64,000 nt of DNA from Deinococcales bacterium (lineage in GTDB: Bacteria > Deinococcota > Deinococci > Deinococcales > JAAFIG01), in contig JANNVX010000018.1 of NCBI GenBank assembly GCA_031414595.1, positions 1-64,000 on the forward strand. The letters are read 5' to 3'. Positions 9,795 through 17,565 of this stretch are shown here, piece after piece. Position 1 is the first letter of the stretch. Each line of letters begins with the position of its first letter. The notes beneath the pieces were generated by a model. That model made no database searches, was not told the DNA's origin, and was given only the letters and a program-made list of their open reading frames with translations. Both the position numbers and the translations under genes were made by a program.

Positions 9795-12700
9795 TCAGAC
9801 CTTAGCAAGCCCGATTTGTCCACCTTCCTCGAGACTGACCAAAAAATCTGTGGGTAAAGGCGCGGCGTACTCGAGTGAATCACAAAGCGTATCTTCACGC
9901 AAAGTGGCTTCCCATGCTCTGGCAGCCTCGAGCGTGTCGCCTGTTAGCTCGAGCCGTAAAGCAATGCGGTTACTGACTTCTAAGCCAGAATCTTTACGGG
10001 CTTGCTGCACAGCACGGAGTAAATCCCGAGCTAAGCCCTCAAGAATTAAATCCTGGGAAAGCGTTGTGGTAAACGCCACTAATAAACCATCTTGCTCTAC
10101 GGCGGCAAAGCCTTCTGGGGATAAAGCATCTACCAGCACGTCGGCTGGCTCGAGGTCAAAAGCACCATCATCGGTCTCGAGTAGAAAATTCTGGCTGCGA
10201 TTGACATGCGCTACAATTTTACTCGAATCGCTATTTTGTAAGGCTGTTCGGATGGCGGGGATGTTCTTGCCGTATTTGCGCCCAAGCGTCGGTAAATTCG
10301 GTTTGAGGTTATACGAAATTAGGGTTGTGCCTTCCTCGAGTAACTTTACGGCTTTGACATTCAGTTCTTCGGCAATGGTACTCGAGAAGCGCTCGAGTGC
10401 CAGATTATCAGCGTTTTCCCTTGCGCGGAGCATGACTTCTTGTAAGGGTTGACGAAGTTTAAGGTTGGCTTGTCCACGTGCTGCCCGACCCAAATCCACA
10501 GTGCGAATTACAACTTGCATCTCAGAAACAAGTTGAGCATCAAAACGACTTGGGTTAAACTTGGGAAAATCACATAAATGCACACTTTCAGGCGCACTCG
10601 AGTCTACGCCGCAAACCAAATTCTGATACAAACTTTCAGATAAAAACGGCGTGAACGGCGCAGCCAATTTTGTGACTGTCACAAGTGCCTCGTACAAAGT
10701 TGCATAAGCGCTCGAGTCTACTGCCCCGTCCTGAGTCCAGAAACGCCGACGATTACGGCGCACATACCAATTACTCAGTTCATCCACAAAGGCTTCCAGT
10801 GCCTTACCGCCCTTACGTGCATCATAGTTATTGAGGGCATCGGTCACGGTTTGGGTCAAACCCTCGAGTCTCGAGATGAGCCAACGGTCAATTTCTGGGC
10901 GTTCGAGAAGTGGTGGGGCGGTGTTCAGGTCTGGATTATCGAGGTTGGCGTACAAAACAAAAAAACTGTAAACATTCCAGAGTGTATTGATAAAACCGCG
11001 TTGCCCCTCGGCAATTAAACGCTCCGAGAAACGCTTGGTATCGCCCGGTTCAGAACCCGTGAACATGTACCAACGCACACTGTCCGCTCCGAACTTATCA
11101 AAAGCGGGCAAAGGCTCAACCACATTGCCTTTGGATTTGGACATCTTCGCGCCTTTTTCATCCACCAAATGCCCGAGGCAAATTACATTTTTATAGACTG
11201 GTTGGTCGTACAAAAGTGTTCCGATGGCGTGCAAACTGTAAAACCAGCCGCGAGTCTGGTCAATTGCCTCGCAGATGTAATCGGCTGGGAAGTGCTTATT
11301 AAAGGTCTCGAGATTCTGCGCCGTACCATCTTCCCCAAGCATCAAATGCCACTGGGCATAAGGCATTGCTCCAGAATCAAACCAGACATCCAGCACCTCT
11401 GGGACTCGAGAAAACTTCTTGCCGTCCTTGATAAACGTTGCATCATCAATGTATGGGCGGTGTAAATCTTCATTCTCGAGTTTTTTGCCCATTAAGTTCT
11501 CGAGTTCCTGCACTGAGCCAATACAAACATAATCGCGCCCATCCTCAGAGACCCAAAAAGGCAACGGCGAACCCCAATAGCGTTCACGGCTGATGCCCCA
11601 ATCCACATTGCCCTCGAGCCACTTGCCAAAGCGTCCATCGCGGATATGTTCAGGCACCCAATTGATGGCTTGGTTGGTCTCGGACATGCGTTTTGCCATT
11701 TTCTCGGTGCGAATAAACCAACTCGGACGGGCAAAGTACAAAATTGGGTCGCCAGTGCGGTCATGGAATGGGTAACGGTGCTTCAGCGTACCCGCGTGGT
11801 ACATCACGCCCCGTTCCTTCATGATTTTGATTAAGCCTTTATCGGCATCCTTAAAGAACTTACCGCGCTCATCGGTGACTTGCATGATGCCGTTGCCGTT
11901 TGTGCCAAAGCAGAGAACGCAGTCGTAGGATTTCCCAACTTCCAAGTCTTCTGCGCCGTAAACTGGGGCTTGGTGTGCTAGACCAGAACCATCTTCGTCG
12001 CCAACAAAATCGGCTAGGACGACAATGTGCGCTCGAGGGTGGGGTTTGGTGTTGGGCGAGGCATGCCTCGCCCCTACGGTGTTTGGTTTTGGTAGGGCGA
12101 ATTTTTCGAGGTTTAGACCAAGTTCTTCAAAGACTTCTGGGAAAGGCTGCTCATACTGCCAAAAGTGCATCAGTTCGCCTTTGAAGGTTGCCAACACCTC
12201 GAGCGGTGGGGCTTCTTTGTTTAGACTCGAGATTCGCTCGACGGCATTTTTTGCAATGATGATATGACCCATCGGGCTGCCGCACAAGGCATACTCGAGA
12301 TTTGGATTGACGGCGGCTAAAGTATTGCTTGGCAGTGTCCACGGTGTGGTTGTCCAAACAATCAAGGCTGGCTGCTCGAGCTTGGTTAAATCTATGCCTT
12401 GTGCCTCGAGGCTTGACTTTAGTGCTTCTGGGGTAGTCTCGAGTTTAACTGGAAGACGCACATAAACACTCGGGTCATCCACCATTTGGTAACTGTTTTC
12501 GTCGCCCAGTTCGGCTTTAGAAAGCGTGCTGCCAATGCGTGGCGAAACTGGCACAACCTTAAAGTCACGCTCGACCAGACCCTTATCCCAAAGTCGTTTT
12601 AAGAGATTCCAAACCGATTCAATGTACTCGTTTTTATAAGTCACATACGCATTCTCGAGGTCTACCCACATCCCAAGGCGTTCGGTAAAATAATTCCAGT

Positions 12701-13094
12701 CTTTGATGTTGCTAAACACAGACTCACGGCACAAGCGGTTAAATTCCTCGAGTTCGGCGCGGGATGAGCCGTGGTTGCGCCCCTTCATGCCCATTTTCTT
12801 CTCGACAGCGATTTCCACAGGCAGCCCGTGGGTGTCCCAGCCGCCTTTTCGAGTGACATGAAAACCATTCATGACCTTAAAACGTGGAAAAATATCCTTG
12901 AAGGCTCGAGCCAGAACGTGATGCATGGCGGGTTGCCCATTGGCGGTAGGGGGTCCTTCGTAAAAAACAAATTCGCCACTAGGGGCAGGTTTTTGTTCGG
13001 TCTGCCCGAAAATGTCTCGAGACTTCCAGAACTCGAGAACGGTGGCTTCGACATCTTTGTAACTGACTTGTGGACTGACTTCATTAAATTTCAT
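9795..13094 (-). CDS. ileS: Isoleucine--tRNA ligase, type 2 (eukaryote-like)
   Basis: FYEGPPTANG, GWDTHGLPVE, WTTTPWTLPSN, DWGISRERYWG, DQTRGWFY, KMSKS; 1099 aa. Confidence 0.98.
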   Translation of the reverse strand: MKFNEVSPQVSYKDVEATVLEFWKSRDIFGQTEQKPAPSGEFVFYEGPPTANGQPAMHHVLARAFKDIFPRFKVMNGFHVTRKGGWDTHGLPVEIAVEKKMGMKGRNHGSSRAELEEFNRLCRESVFSNIKDWNYFTERLGMWVDLENAYVTYKNEYIESVWNLLKRLWDKGLVERDFKVVPVSPRIGSTLSKAELGDENSYQMVDDPSVYVRLPVKLETTPEALKSSLEAQGIDLTKLEQPALIVWTTTPWTLPSNTLAAVNPNLEYALCGSPMGHIIIAKNAVERISSLNKEAPPLEVLATFKGELMHFWQYEQPFPEVFEELGLNLEKFALPKPNTVGARHASPNTKPHPRAHIVVLADFVGDEDGSGLAHQAPVYGAEDLEVGKSYDCVLCFGTNGNGIMQVTDERGKFFKDADKGLIKIMKERGVMYHAGTLKHRYPFHDRTGDPILYFARPSWFIRTEKMAKRMSETNQAINWVPEHIRDGRFGKWLEGNVDWGISRERYWGSPLPFWVSEDGRDYVCIGSVQELENLMGKKLENEDLHRPYIDDATFIKDGKKFSRVPEVLDVWFDSGAMPYAQWHLMLGEDGTAQNLETFNKHFPADYICEAIDQTRGWFYSLHAIGTLLYDQPVYKNVICLGHLVDEKGAKMSKSKGNVVEPLPAFDKFGADSVRWYMFTGSEPGDTKRFSERLIAEGQRGFINTLWNVYSFFVLYANLDNPDLNTAPPLLERPEIDRWLISRLEGLTQTVTDALNNYDARKGGKALEAFVDELSNWYVRRNRRRFWTQDGAVDSSAYATLYEALVTVTKLAAPFTPFLSESLYQNLVCGVDSSAPESVHLCDFPKFNPSRFDAQLVSEMQVVIRTVDLGRAARGQANLKLRQPLQEVMLRARENADNLALERFSSTIAEELNVKAVKLLEEGTTLISYNLKPNLPTLGRKYGKNIPAIRTALQNSDSSKIVAHVNRSQNFLLETDDGAFDLEPADVLVDALSPEGFAAVEQDGLLVAFTTTLSQDLILEGLARDLLRAVQQARKDSGLEVSNRIALRLELTGDTLEAARAWEATLREDTLCDSLEYAAPLPTDFLVSLEEGGQIGLAKV
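12054..12077 (-). repeat. GTAG-type REP inside the ileS coding sequence
   Basis: Minus strand GTAGGGGCGAGGCATGCCTCGCCC, translated in frame as VGARHASP. Confidence 0.85.
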
Positions 13095-13127
13095 AAGACC
13101 TCGTTTGCATGGGTTGTTTGGTTTTTC

Positions 13128-13151
13128 GTAGGGGCGAGGTATGCCTCGCCC
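13128..13151 (+). repeat. GTAG-type REP
   Basis: GTAGGGGCGAGGTATGCCTCGCCC; identical copy at 30298-30321. Confidence 0.9.
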
Positions 13152-13249
13152 TGTGGAACGACATTATTTGAAATTTCCTTTGAATTGATTTATGGTTCTG
13201 TCTTTGGCTTATCTCGAGAAACGCCGTCCTGATTTCAATAAATTCCATT

Positions 13250-13840
13250 TCAATCTTTTGAACTACGAATGATTTTTGATATTTCTTTGTAAAAACCCAT
13301 TGCAAAATAAGCCGAGCCATAAAATTTGATGGCAGCGTATGGATCATCATATCCAATGATTTGAGGGAAATCCTTTAAGGTTTGGCTAAAGAAAAGTCCC
13401 ATGAAATACTGTTCCATAAAACCAGAGAATAAAAACAAAAATATCAAAAGAGAAAATGATAATATGTAAAATAACAAACAGACGTATTTTCGGTTTTTTT
13501 CAAGATAAAAGTTTCCAAAATCCCAAAGTAAAGCAATCAAAAAAATCGAAAAGAAAAAAAGACTTGCATGAATGTTTGCTCCAGTAAAACCGCTATCTCC
13601 ATTGCGATAAACTTTTTTAAGAATCAATGCTGAAATTTCTTTTGATAAATCAGCATTCGACTTTCCGATAAAAATTTTCTCGTTAGTAATATTTTTTGAG
13701 TTATCAATCCGAAAACCCACTATGACATTATTACGGAAAAAAAAAGTAGAGAAAATGATTAAAACAATTATCAGTAAAATCCATCTTGAATATTTTTTTG
13801 GAATTTCGTGAGTAGCTATGAAAATACCAATAGGGAACAT
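13250..13840 (-). CDS. Hypothetical membrane protein (AT-rich, about 3-4 TM segments)
   Basis: 196 aa with several hydrophobic stretches, AGGAG upstream, no recognised family. Confidence 0.65.
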   Translation of the reverse strand: MFPIGIFIATHEIPKKYSRWILLIIVLIIFSTFFFRNNVIVGFRIDNSKNITNEKIFIGKSNADLSKEISALILKKVYRNGDSGFTGANIHASLFFFSIFLIALLWDFGNFYLEKNRKYVCLLFYILSFSLLIFLFLFSGFMEQYFMGLFFSQTLKDFPQIIGYDDPYAAIKFYGSAYFAMGFYKEISKIIRSSKD

Positions 13841-13896
13841 ATTTCTCCTTCAGTTCTCAGCAAATCGCAATAGATGTCAGAATCTTTAATATAGCA

Positions 13897-13919
13897 GGGC
13901 GAACACGAGGGTTCGCTAC
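13897..13919 (-). repeat. Degenerate GTAG-type REP
   Basis: GTAG---CGAACCCTCGTGTTCGCCC with flanks homologous to the REP at 16763-16788. Confidence 0.75.
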
Positions 13920-13993
13920 AATTGATTGGTTTTGAATTCTCGAGATGTTGTGCATAAAATTGTTGGAGATATTTGTATTTGCTGTCATATAAT

Positions 13994-14785
13994 TCATCCT
14001 CTAAAGTCAAGATTTTTTAGGTACTGCTCGGCAACTTGCCCAAGACATAAGCGAATTGTTGTGAAAAACGGTCTCCATTGATGATCTAAATAACGACTGA
14101 TTAAGTTTAAGGTCACGTCTCGGTTGGCATTTCGCCATTCCTTTTTGTTATGTTCTATGTTTCTGAATACAACAAGCCGTTGCTGTACCAATCGGTCACA
14201 GTTTAAGTTGAGTATTTTTATAGTGTTTTCGACCAATTCAAAAACACTGCTAAACTTATTAGATTCTAATTGAATGGTTTCACAGTGTTGTGCATTTGGC
14301 TCGAGAAAACCATTCTTTGGGTTAAACCAAAACAAACAGGGTGATGCAATTATGGTTAGTGGGTTGAGAATAAAGCCTTCGCAGTCTTTTGATATTTTCC
14401 CCATCTGTTCCATATGATTTTTGTGCGAATCACAACTCAGGTTTTCGGGCAAAGGATACGGAGGGTTGCGTTCATGCAGGTAAGGTTTATCACCACCATT
14501 ACAAACGCCAATCATATTTGACCAAAGTAATGCCCAATTGATTAAGGGGTCGGTTGCATCTGATTTTGGATGAAAATGTTCTACTCGAGTCGTGAGTGGT
14601 TCTGAACCCGATATTTTGCATTCGCAATAAGCGCAAAGTCCATATTGGTCGTTGATAATTTGGTCTCTAATGCCAGCATAGACATTTTCAAAGTTTCGTA
14701 AATTTTCCCAAGTGGCTTTTGGATCGTCACGCTCAAAAGTGGATAATTCTCTAGGGGCAACAGGATTTTTGAAAACAAGTTTCAT
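13994..14785 (-). CDS. ptuB: HNH endonuclease, PtuB-like (Septu / retron Ec78-type effector)
   Basis: DQYGLCAYCE, RVEHFHPKS, WSNMIGVCNGG, SCDSHK, TIKILNLN. ATG 14785 overlaps the ATPase stop (ATGA). Confidence 0.8.
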   Translation of the reverse strand: MKLVFKNPVAPRELSTFERDDPKATWENLRNFENVYAGIRDQIINDQYGLCAYCECKISGSEPLTTRVEHFHPKSDATDPLINWALLWSNMIGVCNGGDKPYLHERNPPYPLPENLSCDSHKNHMEQMGKISKDCEGFILNPLTIIASPCLFWFNPKNGFLEPNAQHCETIQLESNKFSSVFELVENTIKILNLNCDRLVQQRLVVFRNIEHNKKEWRNANRDVTLNLISRYLDHQWRPFFTTIRLCLGQVAEQYLKNLDFRG

Positions 14786-16113
14786 TGGTTCTGCTCCCAA
14801 GTGCGGTTCTCAATGAATAAGTCAGCCTCGAGCAAGGCTGGTTCTTCGCCAAGGTAGCGTTGATCTAAAATCGTTCGTAACTCTTTGGCTCGAGGTGAAT
14901 TCCATTGGTTCTTGTAAACAAGGTCTTGATACTCAAGTAATTCTCGAGTTGCCATGTTGTTCTGCGGTCTAGGGTCAACTCCCAAAATGCGTTTTAGGAT
15001 TCGATTTGACTCAGCCCCTTCTGTACCAGAAGGAACAAAAATCTGATTGTTTTCAATAACCCGAATACATTCTGCTGGAACTGTAGATAAAACTTGTGGA
15101 CTGTGGGTACTAACAATAAATTGTGTGTTTGGAAAAGTACGTCGTAAATCCTCGAGAATTCGTTGTTGCCACATTGGATGCAAATGCAAGTCTATCTCGT
15201 CAATGATAACAATGGCTTCTTGGTGCAGTGGATCACTACCAGTTTCCGAAAATGGATTGGCTTGCGCCATTCGTAACGATAAGTCCATAACAAGGGCTAA
15301 CACAGTACGAAAGCCATCACTAAGCTGGGAAAGACGGAGTGTTTTAACAGTTCCATCCTCGAGTGTTTGATCAATCACAAATTGCAAGGGTTTAAGTTTG
15401 GTACGCGGATGCTTAAATCCTGGAAGCATGATTTGGATGGCTTCACGCATGGCTTTTAAGTCTGGTAACTGATATTCAAAATCTCTGCGTTCCTTTTGAG
15501 CTTCGTTCTCGAGACGTTCAAAATAATCAAAACGTTCATAGATGGTACGAAAATTACTCACTGCCCCAAAAGCGCCTTCTAAGGCTTCAAATCGCTTAAA
15601 CTGCTTACGGAAGTCGGTTCTTCGTTCTACTTCCTCGAGAAAAACACGATTTGTGCCATAGAAACGAATTAAAGGTAATTCATAGGATAGATTACTATTC
15701 TCGGAAGCAAGTAGATTTTTTATAAATTCTTCAAAAGCCCCATCCGTTTTAATTTCTTTAGCGATACCAAAATCTATTTCAGTTTGCTCTGAAATGATTT
15801 TTGTATTTTTATCACGGCGTTTGGCTGCCAACAGTCCTATATATTGAGTAGAGATGTTTGCCAGCAAACCAATCTGCGTAGAATCAACTAACTTGTCCTT
15901 ACTGTCAACTCGTATGTCATTTTGAATCAGTGACTTCCCATCCTTACGAATAAGTTGAGTTGCAAACCGACTCAGAAGGATATTGATTGCTTCAAGAACC
16001 GATGTTTTTCCCCCACCATTTTCAGAAACAAAAACAGTCAGATTATTATGAAATTTGACGTTAAGACTTTCAAAAGCCCGAAAATTTGTGAGTCGTAAGC
16101 TAATTATTTTCAC
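14782..16113 (-). CDS. ptuA: ABC-type AAA ATPase, PtuA-like
   Basis: Walker A SENGGGKT, QLSDG, IIDEIDLHLHPMWQ, STHSPQV; C-terminal GAESNRILKRILGVDPRP..DLFIENRTWE as in PtuA proteins. Confidence 0.82.
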   Translation of the reverse strand: MKIISLRLTNFRAFESLNVKFHNNLTVFVSENGGGKTSVLEAINILLSRFATQLIRKDGKSLIQNDIRVDSKDKLVDSTQIGLLANISTQYIGLLAAKRRDKNTKIISEQTEIDFGIAKEIKTDGAFEEFIKNLLASENSNLSYELPLIRFYGTNRVFLEEVERRTDFRKQFKRFEALEGAFGAVSNFRTIYERFDYFERLENEAQKERRDFEYQLPDLKAMREAIQIMLPGFKHPRTKLKPLQFVIDQTLEDGTVKTLRLSQLSDGFRTVLALVMDLSLRMAQANPFSETGSDPLHQEAIVIIDEIDLHLHPMWQQRILEDLRRTFPNTQFIVSTHSPQVLSTVPAECIRVIENNQIFVPSGTEGAESNRILKRILGVDPRPQNNMATRELLEYQDLVYKNQWNSPRAKELRTILDQRYLGEEPALLEADLFIENRTWEQNQ

Positions 16114-16130: not shown

Positions 16131-16208
16131 TTAGCAAACATTGACGAAACTCCACAAACCCTTGATGTTTTTGTAGCTGACTTGTGGACTGACTTCATTA
16201 AATTTCAT
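16131..16208 (-). pseudogene. Duplicated ileS 5' fragment (25-codon mini-ORF)
   Basis: MKFNEVSPQVSYK|NIKGLWSFVNVC*. 16170-16208 matches ileS 13056-13094 at 38/39 nt. Confidence 0.9.
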
Positions 16209-16617
16209 TGATTCCTCCGAATTTCAAAAAACGGTTAAATAAATAGGTAAATAATGGAGATAAGTCTCCATTTTGAATAAGAAATCGCTCTCTGGTTTCC
16301 TCGAGAAACCTATCTTCAAAAGGACTTGGACTTAAAACGACTGAGCCGCAATTAATCTGTTCGTTTGAAGAATTAATACCTGTGACAATATCCCAATCAA
16401 ACTCACCGCTCCGCCAAGCAGTAAAGGAACAAATTACACTCCAATCTCCTTTTGAGTTTACCGATACAAGGTCAATTCCACCTGAGTGCAAATTTTCTGG
16501 AGTATCCCAATGAGGATTGCGCCACGTTTTTTCAATCTGCAAATGATTTAGTTCAAGAATGACTTGATTGTTCTCGAGCCATTCAAGTAATTTCTCGGGA
16601 TATTGCAATTCAGTCAT
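16198..16617 (-). CDS. Small acidic protein, putative immunity protein (TriTu-like); paralog of 16960-17328
   Basis: Start moved to ATG 16617 (AAGGA RBS). PEKLLEWLENN..NPHWDTPENLHS..FTAWRSGEFDW. Confidence 0.5.
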   Translation of the reverse strand: MTELQYPEKLLEWLENNQVILELNHLQIEKTWRNPHWDTPENLHSGGIDLVSVNSKGDWSVICSFTAWRSGEFDWDIVTGINSSNEQINCGSVVLSPSPFEDRFLEETRERFLIQNGDLSPLFTYLFNRFLKFGGINEI

Positions 16618-16653
16618 GATTTCCTTGGGCAATCGAGAATTTTTTTTGATTTT

Positions 16654-16963
16654 GTAGGGACAGACCCCCGTGTCTGTCCTCTGAGAAAATATAAATTGGA
16701 ATTCCCTTTGAATCATTTTTATTAAATCCAATTGGTTCATCTCGAGAAATGCCGTCCTAGCAGGGCGAACACAGGGGTTCGCCCCTACAGTTGATTGGTT
16801 TTGAATTGTCAAAACGTTGAACATAAAAAGCCCTTTTTGTTTTCGTAGGGGAGGGTCTTGTACCCTCCCGCGTGAGACGACATTATTTGAAATTTCACAT
16901 TTAATTTTTTGGTGTACCTCAAGAAATGTCGTGTGGCAGGGCGACCACAAGGGTCGCCCCTAC
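16654..16963. repeat. Array of four GTAG-type REPs in alternating orientation (two REP doublets, BIME/REPIN-like)
   Basis: Hairpins at 16654-16680, 16763-16788, 16845-16869 and 16939-16963, each with a GTAGGG(G)/CCCCTAC foot. Confidence 0.9.
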
Positions 16964-17328
16964 AGTTGACTGGTAATCAATTGTTGAAAAAATGGTTTAA
17001 GAATAATGTCAAAGGACGATTCTGAAATGCTAATTTTTTTTCTACCTATTCCGTCATCATCCCCACTTGTTTTTTCTATCTCGAGAAATACTGAATCACC
17101 CAATAGAAGGTCATTATCAGAGCTATAAACCAAAAAATCGAAATGTCCAGCTTGCCAAATTGTCACATCTCCTGCATTGAGATTTGTCCAAAAAATTGCC
17201 CGTGCTGAGTGTAAAATACTTGGATTGTTCCAATCTGGATTTTTATTTGTTTCAATTTCATGAATCCCAAGCGCTAACAATCGCTTTTGATTTTTCTGAA
17301 CCCACTCGAGAAATATTTCTGGCAACAT
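16960..17328 (-). CDS. Small protein, putative immunity protein (TriTu-like)
   Basis: Start moved to ATG 17328. PEIFLEWVQKN..NPDWNNPSILHS..GDVTIWQAGHFDF. Its TAG stop is the TAG of a REP GTAG foot. Confidence 0.5.
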   Translation of the reverse strand: MLPEIFLEWVQKNQKRLLALGIHEIETNKNPDWNNPSILHSARAIFWTNLNAGDVTIWQAGHFDFLVYSSDNDLLLGDSVFLEIEKTSGDDDGIGRKKISISESSFDIILKPFFQQLITSQL

Positions 17329-17559
17329 AAAAACCCCAGCCAACGCATTGTGCGTTCTGCTGGGGCGCTGTTTGCGCGTTACCACCCAACTTCACTCGAG
17401 CCTCGCGGTTCTCGAGCCTTATGCCGTCTTGAACGGCTTGCGCTGTGTCGGGCGCTCCCGAATGGTTCTACTCGAGATTTGGGTCGGCGTGTCACCGCCG
17501 TCTCTTTCTTCCATTGGCTCGGAGGTGATGCTGATTGCTCAGGTTCTCGTCATTGCCGT
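17329..17559 (-). ncRNA. T-box riboswitch, Ile specifier (ileS-type, short stem I)
   Basis: Minus strand: GC-ATC-ACC..GAGCC..GGAAGAA (specifier 17527-17529), AGTAGAACC..CGGG..CCCGACACAGCGC, T-box GGGTGGTAACGCG (17375-17387), antiterminator partner CGCCCC, terminator CCCCAGC..GCTGGGG-TTTTT (17329-17365). Confidence 0.9.
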
Positions 17560-17565
17560 ATGCCT

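Follow-up and report, generated by a model that had tools for sequence, protein, structure and literature searches.

A membrane-protein gene inside a REP unit of the variable gene array between a T-box leader and ileS in a Deinococcales bacterium

A REP unit beside ileS is split by a 662-bp segment

We analysed a 64,000-nt stretch of DNA from a Deinococcales bacterium (hereafter the window; GenBank assembly GCA_031414595.1, contig JANNVX010000018.1, positions 1 to 64,000), in which a unit built of two repetitive extragenic palindromic (REP) hairpins stands next to the start of the isoleucyl-tRNA synthetase gene ileS and is interrupted by a segment holding a single gene, here called X. The genome of the window (G000; other G-codes denote related genomes) is 94% complete and has a GC content of 47.2%. 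The two parts of this one REP doublet lie at 13128-13230 and 13893-13955, with 662 bp between them (13231-13892; the junction is ambiguous by 1 nt, a T). The left part comprises a REP hairpin with a GTAG tag and an 8-bp stem (13128..13151, plus strand), recognised by a hairpin scan and in the sequence, followed by the spacer with both of its arms (13152..13230, plus strand; 79 nt up to the left junction), which can be aligned to intact copies of the unit and to the unfilled sites of G001, G003, and G005. The right part, delimited by sequence and MAFFT alignment, consists of AGCA with a degenerate right REP hairpin and a CTAC tag (13893..13919, plus strand), and of a conserved linker (13920..13955, plus strand) that MAFFT and a genome match place in common with 16789-16828.

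Two intact doublets were found by the hairpin scan in the same window, namely doublet A (16654..16788, plus strand) with a spacer of 83 nt and doublet B (16845..16963, plus strand) with a spacer of 69 nt; the folding of doublet A beats that of 200 out of 200 shuffled sequences (z -3.7). Against both copies, the 662 bp appeared in a MAFFT alignment as a single clean gap holding only X, with doublet A aligning well and doublet B more loosely. A preliminary description of this DNA had placed a gene precisely inside a REP doublet, the left part ending at 13230, the right part resuming at 13893, and the same sequence running unbroken at 16739-16772; all of this proved correct, as did its remarks that an outer flank is common to both copies (13922-13938 and 16791-16807) and that there is no target duplication beyond one T, which corresponds to the 1-nt ambiguity of the junction. 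The right flank is 83% identical to 16759-16828 over 70 nt (E 5.8e-14); because of this value, and because G001, G003, and G005 have an unbroken orthologous site at the ileS start, the match between the units is not due to chance. The degeneracy of the right hairpin in the split copy concerns its 3' arm and tag, which read GTTCGCTAC; the intact copy at 16763-16788 has three C more, and these three extra C are present in another organism's copy of the right hairpin.

The inserted segment (13231..13892) has a GC content of about 29% (25-31% in 200-nt windows, versus 47.2% for the genome), is single-copy in G000, and is made up of X, a 52-nt upstream leader, and 19 nt past the stop codon. Between its insertion point and the foot of the right hairpin there are 4 nt. 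The bases common to the junctions amount to 1 nt at most, and neither a target duplication nor terminal repeats were found there; the segment carries no CTCGAG site, no GC-rich subterminal hairpins at its two ends, and no transposase. Three other studies supplied contigs that each cross one junction (X5 over 13142-13547, X7 over 13131-13281, and X6 over 13645-13928), with 3 mismatches each (~98-99% identity); since these independent contigs span both junctions, a misassembly was ruled out. An empty joint of the same species, leading from 13230 directly to 13893, was not present in the contigs of 4 runs, a result of low weight because contigs drop rare variants.

As a side observation, CTCGAG (for example at 13213-13218 and 13939-13944) is the commonest hexamer of G000, with 23,235 copies or one per 193 bp, about three times as many as the next one. 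Other GC-rich palindromes are nearly absent from this genome (GGCGCC, 3 copies; TGCGCA, 2; GGGCCC, 0). The abundance of CTCGAG resembles the highly iterated palindromes of cyanobacteria.

The filled state is compared with empty sites

To place the split unit among its relatives, 41 genomes (G000 included) were searched with positions 12700-14300 as the query, and the orthologous place was found to adjoin the ileS start. In three genomes of the same genus (G001, G003, and G005), the orthologous unit is uninterrupted, which bears out the empty site supposed by the preliminary description; the X segment is therefore a true insertion. Furthermore, CCTAGCA, the motif directly before the hairpin, is also contiguous within an unrelated, high-copy transposable element of the miniature inverted-repeat type (MITE) in G000, and this continuity means that the break lies inside a standard half-unit composed of tag, hairpin, and arm. 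A reading of the junction as CCT|AGCA, with an element end here and a duplication of TAG, was ruled out, as the identical string is internal in the MITE. Overall, these comparisons indicate that the filled state is the derived one and that it is a genuine, scarless insertion into a pre-existing REP unit.

Gene X belongs to a small family bound to the T-box-ileS gap

X (13250..13840, minus strand; 196 aa) is the only credible gene in the insert and is preceded by a GGAG box. Its product is predicted to be a membrane protein of four helices with a small beta sheet and belongs to a lineage-restricted family; the AlphaFold model (mean predicted local distance difference test score 82.7) shows four long helices and a small sheet. 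X had no match in Pfam or PADLOC, and its sole NCBIfam row was sub-threshold (MSC_0882 domain, 17.1 bits against a cut-off of 60). Structural matches were uninformative, with a best E of 1.3 for Foldseek against the PDB and a best Z of 11.6 for the wide VIA search, a value reached with generic helical bundles and too low to be meaningful for helical proteins; the ESM Atlas gave no usable match.

Five more X-type genes were found at the loci of relatives, and the family members are 21-25% identical to X. A profile of these six, run against 1.84 billion representative proteins, found 17 proteins, 6 of which were the query rows. When 151 genomes of the order (G000 included) were searched in six frames, 9 X matches appeared in 8 genomes from four genera, all belonging to one family. 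Eight of the nine, from G000, G001, G005, G006, G007 (two genes), G009, and G018, have the same strand as ileS and are located between its start and a T-box leader. The remaining one, in G008, is weak (E 5.7e-7), and its 2-kb contig contains no ileS. The eight placed genes have a GC content of 24-34% and 0-1 CTCGAG sites each; ileS has 9 such sites per kb.

Within the genus, the isoleucyl-tRNA synthetases are 92-99% identical (84% for G002), while the X alleles share only about 22% (21-25%); the X alleles are therefore not orthologues that diverged along with their species. Judging from these identities, they are old allelic lineages that are exchanged and not vertically inherited. X is thus not an arbitrary cargo gene: it is one allele of a tiny and extremely divergent family of ~200-aa membrane proteins that is bound to the gap between T-box leader and ileS.

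The T-box-ileS gap holds a variable same-strand gene array

The downstream anchor of the locus is ileS itself (9795..13094, minus strand; 1099 aa), which adjoins it in all relatives searched. The upstream end is a T-box leader with a terminator hairpin (17329..17562, minus strand), whose match to Rfam RF00230 extends from 17562 to 17358 and is followed by the hairpin and a T-run. From leader to ileS, G000 carries Y2, unit B, unit A, Y1, PtuA, PtuB, and X inside its unit. Y2 (16960..17328, minus strand) likely starts at the ATG right after the T-run of the leader, and its stop codon is the TAG of a GTAG tag. Y1 (16198..16620, minus strand; 140 aa) is a paralogue of Y2 with ~35% identity, and neither of them has a family match. 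A distant relative of these two stands directly after the leader in G006 (L015 2307-2675), and the first gene has its start codon directly after the terminator T-run in both G000 and G006. PtuA, an ATPase (14782..16113, minus strand; PADLOC E 2.2e-119; Pfam AAA_15 and AAA_21), and PtuB, an HNH nuclease (13994..14800, minus strand; PADLOC E 8e-93; NCBIfam PtuB, 137.8 bits), are adjacent and overlapping open reading frames (ORFs) that constitute a Septu defence system. Just upstream of PtuA, the initial 39 nt of the ileS coding sequence recur as an orphan copy (16170..16208, minus strand; 38 of 39 nt identical).

The T-box matches at this locus score 27.4 bits in the window, 29.5 in G005, 32.1 in G001, 41 in G002, 58.4 in G009, and 66.9 in G018, all below the gathering score of 93; each of them is full-length and has the conserved T-box core (GGGUGGUA). 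In the window, Stem I measures only 18 nt compared with 75 model positions, and G001 and G005 have similarly low scores; G018 and G009 match Stem I fully. Two more T-box matches, of 77 and 61 bits, are present in G000. The distance from the leader to ileS is ~140 nt in G002, ~115 nt in G015, and 4.3 kb in G000. A GTAG REP hairpin was also observed within the T-box leader of G009 (L018 632-656).

The content of the gap differs from genome to genome. Read again from leader to ileS, G003 has PtuA, PtuB, and a unit; G005 has PtuA, PtuB, a unit, and an X-type gene (X'), its contig C542 stopping at the leader; G001 has another X-type gene (X'') and a unit; G006 has a Y-like gene, units, and a gene inside a unit; G007 has a further X-type gene (X'''), units, PtuA, PtuB, units again, and a gene inside a unit; G018 has X only, with no REP; and G009 has an ORF that resembles a NUDIX hydrolase by eye only, followed by X. 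All lodged genes are on the ileS strand. Septu occupies the gap in G000, G003, G005, and G007 and is absent from it in G001, G002, and G006; none was seen in the stretch from X to ileS of G018 and G009, the only stretch read in these two genomes. Septu is missing from the X-bearing stretches read of G001, G006, G009, and G018, and G003 has Septu but no X, which ruled out X as a third Septu gene.

No recombinase or transposase was matched in Pfam by the 21 ORFs of at least 170 aa that were scanned, out of 24 listed for positions 2187-28873 of the window; the other three overlap larger genes on the opposite strand. A scan of the array for promoters and terminators returned no more sites than shuffled sequences did. 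Within ileS itself, a full GTAG REP hairpin was observed in frame (12054-12077, minus strand), translated as GARHASP, and G005 has a variant of this stretch. Taken together, the T-box-ileS gap is a variable same-strand gene array with locus-specific REP units.

Breakpoints vary and recombination has left scars

We next compared where the X-family genes are joined to the surrounding DNA. The gene of G000 is 4 nt from the right hairpin, as described above. In G006 and G007, the breakpoint is in the middle of the spacer, at distances of ~20 nt (left hairpin) and ~25-30 nt (right hairpin), and part of the spacer has been replaced; the second gene of G007 is joined ~28 nt from a hairpin. The breakpoint of G001 is ~15-22 nt past the CTAC tag, and that of G009 is inside the 5' end of ileS. 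In G005, the join is outside the resident unit: the insert extends from the loop of a half REP that it brought with it to 9 nt before the ATG of ileS, with 2 nt of microhomology. Hence, the seven X-family genes of the six REP-bearing genomes (G000, G001, G005, G006, G007, and G009) sit at seven different breakpoints, ranging from a hairpin loop to ileS. The recurrence of breakpoints 4-5 nt from the hairpin, expected from the preliminary description, is not seen, as the positions change from one genome to the next; likewise, the supposed tie of the gene to REPs is contradicted by the X homologue in the T-box-ileS gap of G018, which lies there without any REP.

Several scars are visible in the array. 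The stop codon of Y1 overlaps the orphan ileS fragment at 16170-16208, so Y1 once abutted ileS; the block of PtuA, PtuB, and unit came later, together with a fresh 5' end of ileS. In G009, a ~50-nt copy of its own ileS start is found upstream of the X gene. A homologous crossover in ileS together with one illegitimate join would account for the insert of G005. A comparison of G000 with G005 revealed a mosaic of identities: 88% in ileS, 84-93% in PtuB and the 3' part of PtuA (PtuB ~90%), and 96-100% in PtuA positions 14989-16100. Set against the 88% of ileS, the identity of these 5' two-thirds of PtuA is a sign of a recent exchange of Septu genes between species. In G007, ~68 nt of unrelated sequence have taken the place of the 5' arm of a right REP hairpin (L014 2170-2245), with one boundary at the foot of the hairpin and the other within its loop. 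Homology-facilitated illegitimate recombination (HFIR) is marked by a homologous anchor, a microhomology junction, and duplicated recipient sequence; this pattern was seen for the PtuA/PtuB block, for the X gene of G009, and for the insert of G005.

REP hairpins, the MITE and a RAYT-like gene in the genome

The hairpin scan of G000 yielded 272 GTAG hairpins, 246 of which begin with GTAGGG. Where the tags of neighbours face each other, the spacing is 22 nt in 51 of 70 pairs, and such pairs form the centre of the MITE, which is 191 nt long and has terminal inverted repeats (e.g., C33:43648-43838 and about 50 contig ends). This MITE was detected as 111 BLAST pieces, with 8 full copies within contigs and 44 pieces at contig ends, which means that it breaks up the assembly. 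TAA or TTA adjoins 24 of 28 left ends and 28 of 33 right ends, and 156 of the 246 GTAGGG hairpins are inside MITE matches. GTAG-tagged inverted pairs, as in the REP doublets known as REPINs, are represented in the window by the split pair and the two intact ones. Pairs with outward GTAG tags are rare in the genome: eight have irregular spacers of 39-183 nt, without the uniform spacing of REPINs, and two more (on C33 and C45), separated by 2.0 and 2.4 kb, are distinct repeats with ordinary genes between them whose GC content is normal. With the hairpins excluded, the spacer and linker of the three units of the window have no match elsewhere in G000, and the segment of right hairpin plus linker was matched in five congeners on the ileS contig only. 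These units are therefore specific to the locus, although composed of generic REP hairpins, and do not represent a dispersed REPIN.

A mini-hairpin element of ~37 nt (33 matches of a 12-nt motif) is nested in several types of REP hairpin, with instances at C33:45876-45938 and on C15, C17, C31, and C39-C41. It was also seen once in a T-box leader (G018, L020).

The preliminary description led us to expect a REP-associated tyrosine transposase (RAYT) in the genome. One RAYT-like gene does exist, and in this respect the expectation was right; it stands without flanking REPs and scores below the NCBIfam cut-off, so that a RAYT cognate to the REPs was not found in this 94%-complete genome. Its product, on C98 (234 aa), is the only Y1_Tnp protein of G000, with 39 bits in Pfam and a best NCBIfam score of 62.9 bits for REP_Tyr_transpos against a cut-off of 80. 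The gene (1417-2121 of the locus L001, C98:105348-108518) overlaps hsdM and is 34 nt from hsdS of a type I restriction system, and it has no flanking REPs because it is squeezed between hsdS and hsdM. A low-complexity, in-frame stretch of the protein, VGALLAAP, matches the translation of a GTAG hairpin at the counterpart locus of G001; this stretch can be read as a putative REP-like insert in the RAYT-like gene. In congeners, the Y1 genes with strong scores (139-150 bits) are TnpA genes of the IS200 type, none of which is present in the G000 assembly, and the four 3.2-3.4-kb TnpA loci examined in congeners contain no GTAG hairpins.

Discussion

REP pairs, RAYTs, MITEs, Septu, T-box leaders, and variable hotspots are all known. 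What is unusual here is an array placed inside an operon, between a riboswitch-like leader and an essential gene, with strict same-strand order and a hyper-divergent family bound to the locus. REPINs are not known to carry genes, and no report of such a case was among the papers listed by a literature search. The word 'cargo', where it is used in the relevant part of PMC3390384, denotes prophages and islands, and REPs inside genes, as well as RAYT genes flanked by REPs or long inverted repeats, are recorded in PMC3733652. The window resembles REPINs and bacterial interspersed mosaic elements in its GTAG-tagged, GC-rich hairpins, in its inverted pairs that can be folded into a longer hairpin, and in the one RAYT-like gene of its genome. 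It differs from them in that the spacer and linker of its unit are locus-specific, outward pairs are rare and irregular, most hairpins are in the MITE, and the RAYT-like gene is not flanked by REPs. Similar to defence hotspots flanked by core genes, the locus is a fixed site between conserved genes that harbours different defence or other genes in each genome; unlike them, the ileS site is inside an operon, from leader to synthetase, and the inserted genes are all on the operon strand. The lack of a target duplication and the hairpins near the junction recall elements of the insertion sequence families IS200/IS605 with passenger genes; the differences are that the hairpins are outside the inserted DNA, that subterminal hairpins are missing within it, and that TnpA of the IS200 type is absent from the G000 assembly.

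Two accounts would reverse or recast the event. If X were ancestral at this spot, the uninterrupted units of the relatives would be precise deletions; the X family is old at the locus (four genera), and X is directly upstream of ileS in 6 of the 8 placed cases. However, precise loss in G001, G003, and G005, each time restoring the generic continuity of CCTAGCA with the hairpin, is unlikely without a site-specific system, and the CTCGAG box is on the opposite side of the gene in G006 and G007, so that one deletion scheme cannot fit both layouts. We regard an ancestral X as very improbable. It is also conceivable that the REP pieces are the mobile partners, a left and a right piece having inserted separately around a resident X, given that REPs and MITEs are mobile in G000, with its 246 hairpins, and that REP hairpins are present even inside the ileS coding sequence and a T-box leader. 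Yet the pieces fit each other to the nucleotide, like the intact units of G000 (doublet A) and G005 and the right side of the filled units of G006 and G007, and the spacer sequence of the unit is confined to the ileS locus; this account has hardly any probability in our view.

Other explanations concern the agent of insertion. According to the preliminary description, REPs and a RAYT had captured the gene in the manner of integron cassettes: a RAYT, an HUH enzyme, would have cleaved single-stranded DNA next to the right REP hairpin and attached a foreign gene there, the doublets being cassette sites. The part of this idea that stands is that the locus behaves as a same-strand cassette array; a RAYT/REP mechanism is not supported. 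It is true that the REPs bear the GTAG tag, that G000 encodes the RAYT-like protein described above, that the mini-hairpin element is nested in many REP hairpins, and that the break directly follows CT and, with the REP read GTAG-first, is 3' of the hairpin at 4 nt from its foot. RAYTs, in the part of the literature covered by PMC8266576, cut at the C|T dinucleotide 5' or 3' of a REP, and one enzyme also cuts at CA. The junction of X, after TGCT or TGCTA, is nevertheless 1-2 nt 3' of the C|T bond, although a rule taken from characterised RAYTs may not be that of this enzyme. The closeness to the hairpin is the only feature that ties the X insertion to a REP-specific enzyme. Against such an enzyme, the breakpoints are as numerous as the genes and G018 has no REP; the other 9 outward-GTAG pairs of G000 are all unfilled, and filled doublets elsewhere are confined to the ileS locus of G006 and G007, with different breakpoints; the RAYT-like gene, besides its lack of flanking REPs and its low score, itself contains the putative REP-like insert; 156 of 246 hairpins are cargo of a TAA/TTA-flanked inverted-repeat MITE; and the inserted DNA has no subterminal hairpins. 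Capture by a RAYT is thus unlikely; if it were true, REPs would be a new kind of cassette site, and the evidence points away from this. A related and likewise unlikely possibility is that the T-box-ileS gap is a dedicated capture platform, in which a hairpin-specific enzyme acting on single-stranded DNA (the RAYT-like protein or the mover of the mini-hairpin) inserts genes beside REPs. Such a platform would be an integrase-free counterpart of the integron and would place Septu and a hyper-variable membrane protein under the control of tRNA-Ile charging. As for a site-specific system of the integron type, in which the ~190-bp units would be attC-like sites for a recombinase encoded elsewhere and the T-box promoter the cassette promoter, the locus resembles an integron array or an integrase-less attC cluster in several points: it consists of promoter-proximal, single, AT-rich genes, all on one strand downstream of one leader and alternating with similar, stably folding units that are specific to the locus in G000 and, as right hairpin plus linker, restricted to the ileS contig in five congeners; in G007, PtuA and PtuB lie between direct repeats of units. 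Still, no integrase was seen nearby, the scanned ORFs gave no recombinase match, the junctions of genes and units vary instead of forming one core site, no end motif common to the cassettes was recognised by eye, the ~190-bp units contain two self-palindromic REPs, and the ileS 5' fragments point to events with a homologous anchor; an integron-like system is very improbable.

The reading we favour, to which we would assign a probability of about one half, is that X was inserted illegitimately at the foot of the hairpin during recombinational turnover of the cassettes of the array. The comparisons show the direction of the event, a family bound to the gap, breakpoints that vary, scars derived from ileS, and a mosaic of identities. 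Under this reading, the array would be remodelled by recombination with DNA from related strains, in which one crossover is homologous, within ileS or another conserved part, while an illegitimate join that uses 0-2 nt of microhomology makes up the other; the insertion of X would most likely be one such illegitimate join, or two. What we infer here is by which enzymology the X junctions arose and what part the hairpin played, the hairpin-forming REP presumably serving as a break-prone or stall-prone site. In support of turnover, other rearrangements at the locus also end in or at REP hairpins, namely the junction in the loop in G005 and the ~68-nt replacement in G007. A combination of one-sided homology with an illegitimate join is known as HFIR from transformable bacteria (part of PMC6382021), and the ileS locus resembles it in its conserved anchor, ileS, with an illegitimate join opposite, in the leftover 5' fragments of ileS, and in the mosaic identity. 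End-joining capture by Ku was ruled out, there being no Ku in the 94%-complete genome.

Several points weigh against illegitimate insertion during cassette turnover. The HFIR pattern is not demonstrable for the X insertion of the window itself, which differs from HFIR in needing two novel junctions: both are new with respect to every relative seen, a single HFIR event starting from the known layouts is insufficient, and either the donor already had the X structure or two illegitimate joins are needed. The microhomology at the X junctions, 0-1 nt, is shorter than the 3-10 nt of published HFIR junctions in the portion of PMC6382021 concerned. A second copy or donor of X was found neither in G000 nor in the metagenome contigs of the Joint Genome Institute (JGI), and a word-indexed protein search returned the query only. 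Moreover, a position 4 nt from the hairpin foot and right after CT might also be the outcome of a hairpin-directed nuclease, and the 37-nt mini-hairpin nested in REP hairpins suggests that some hairpin-directed machinery may exist in G000.

These findings place an anti-phage system and a divergent family of membrane proteins between a tRNA-sensing leader and its predicted target, the gene of an essential synthetase, and the scars show how such an array grows. The related genomes form a natural series with 0 to 5 genes in the gap. This series can be used to study how foreign genes are added beside an essential gene without breaking it, and it could show whether defence genes can become coupled to tRNA charging.

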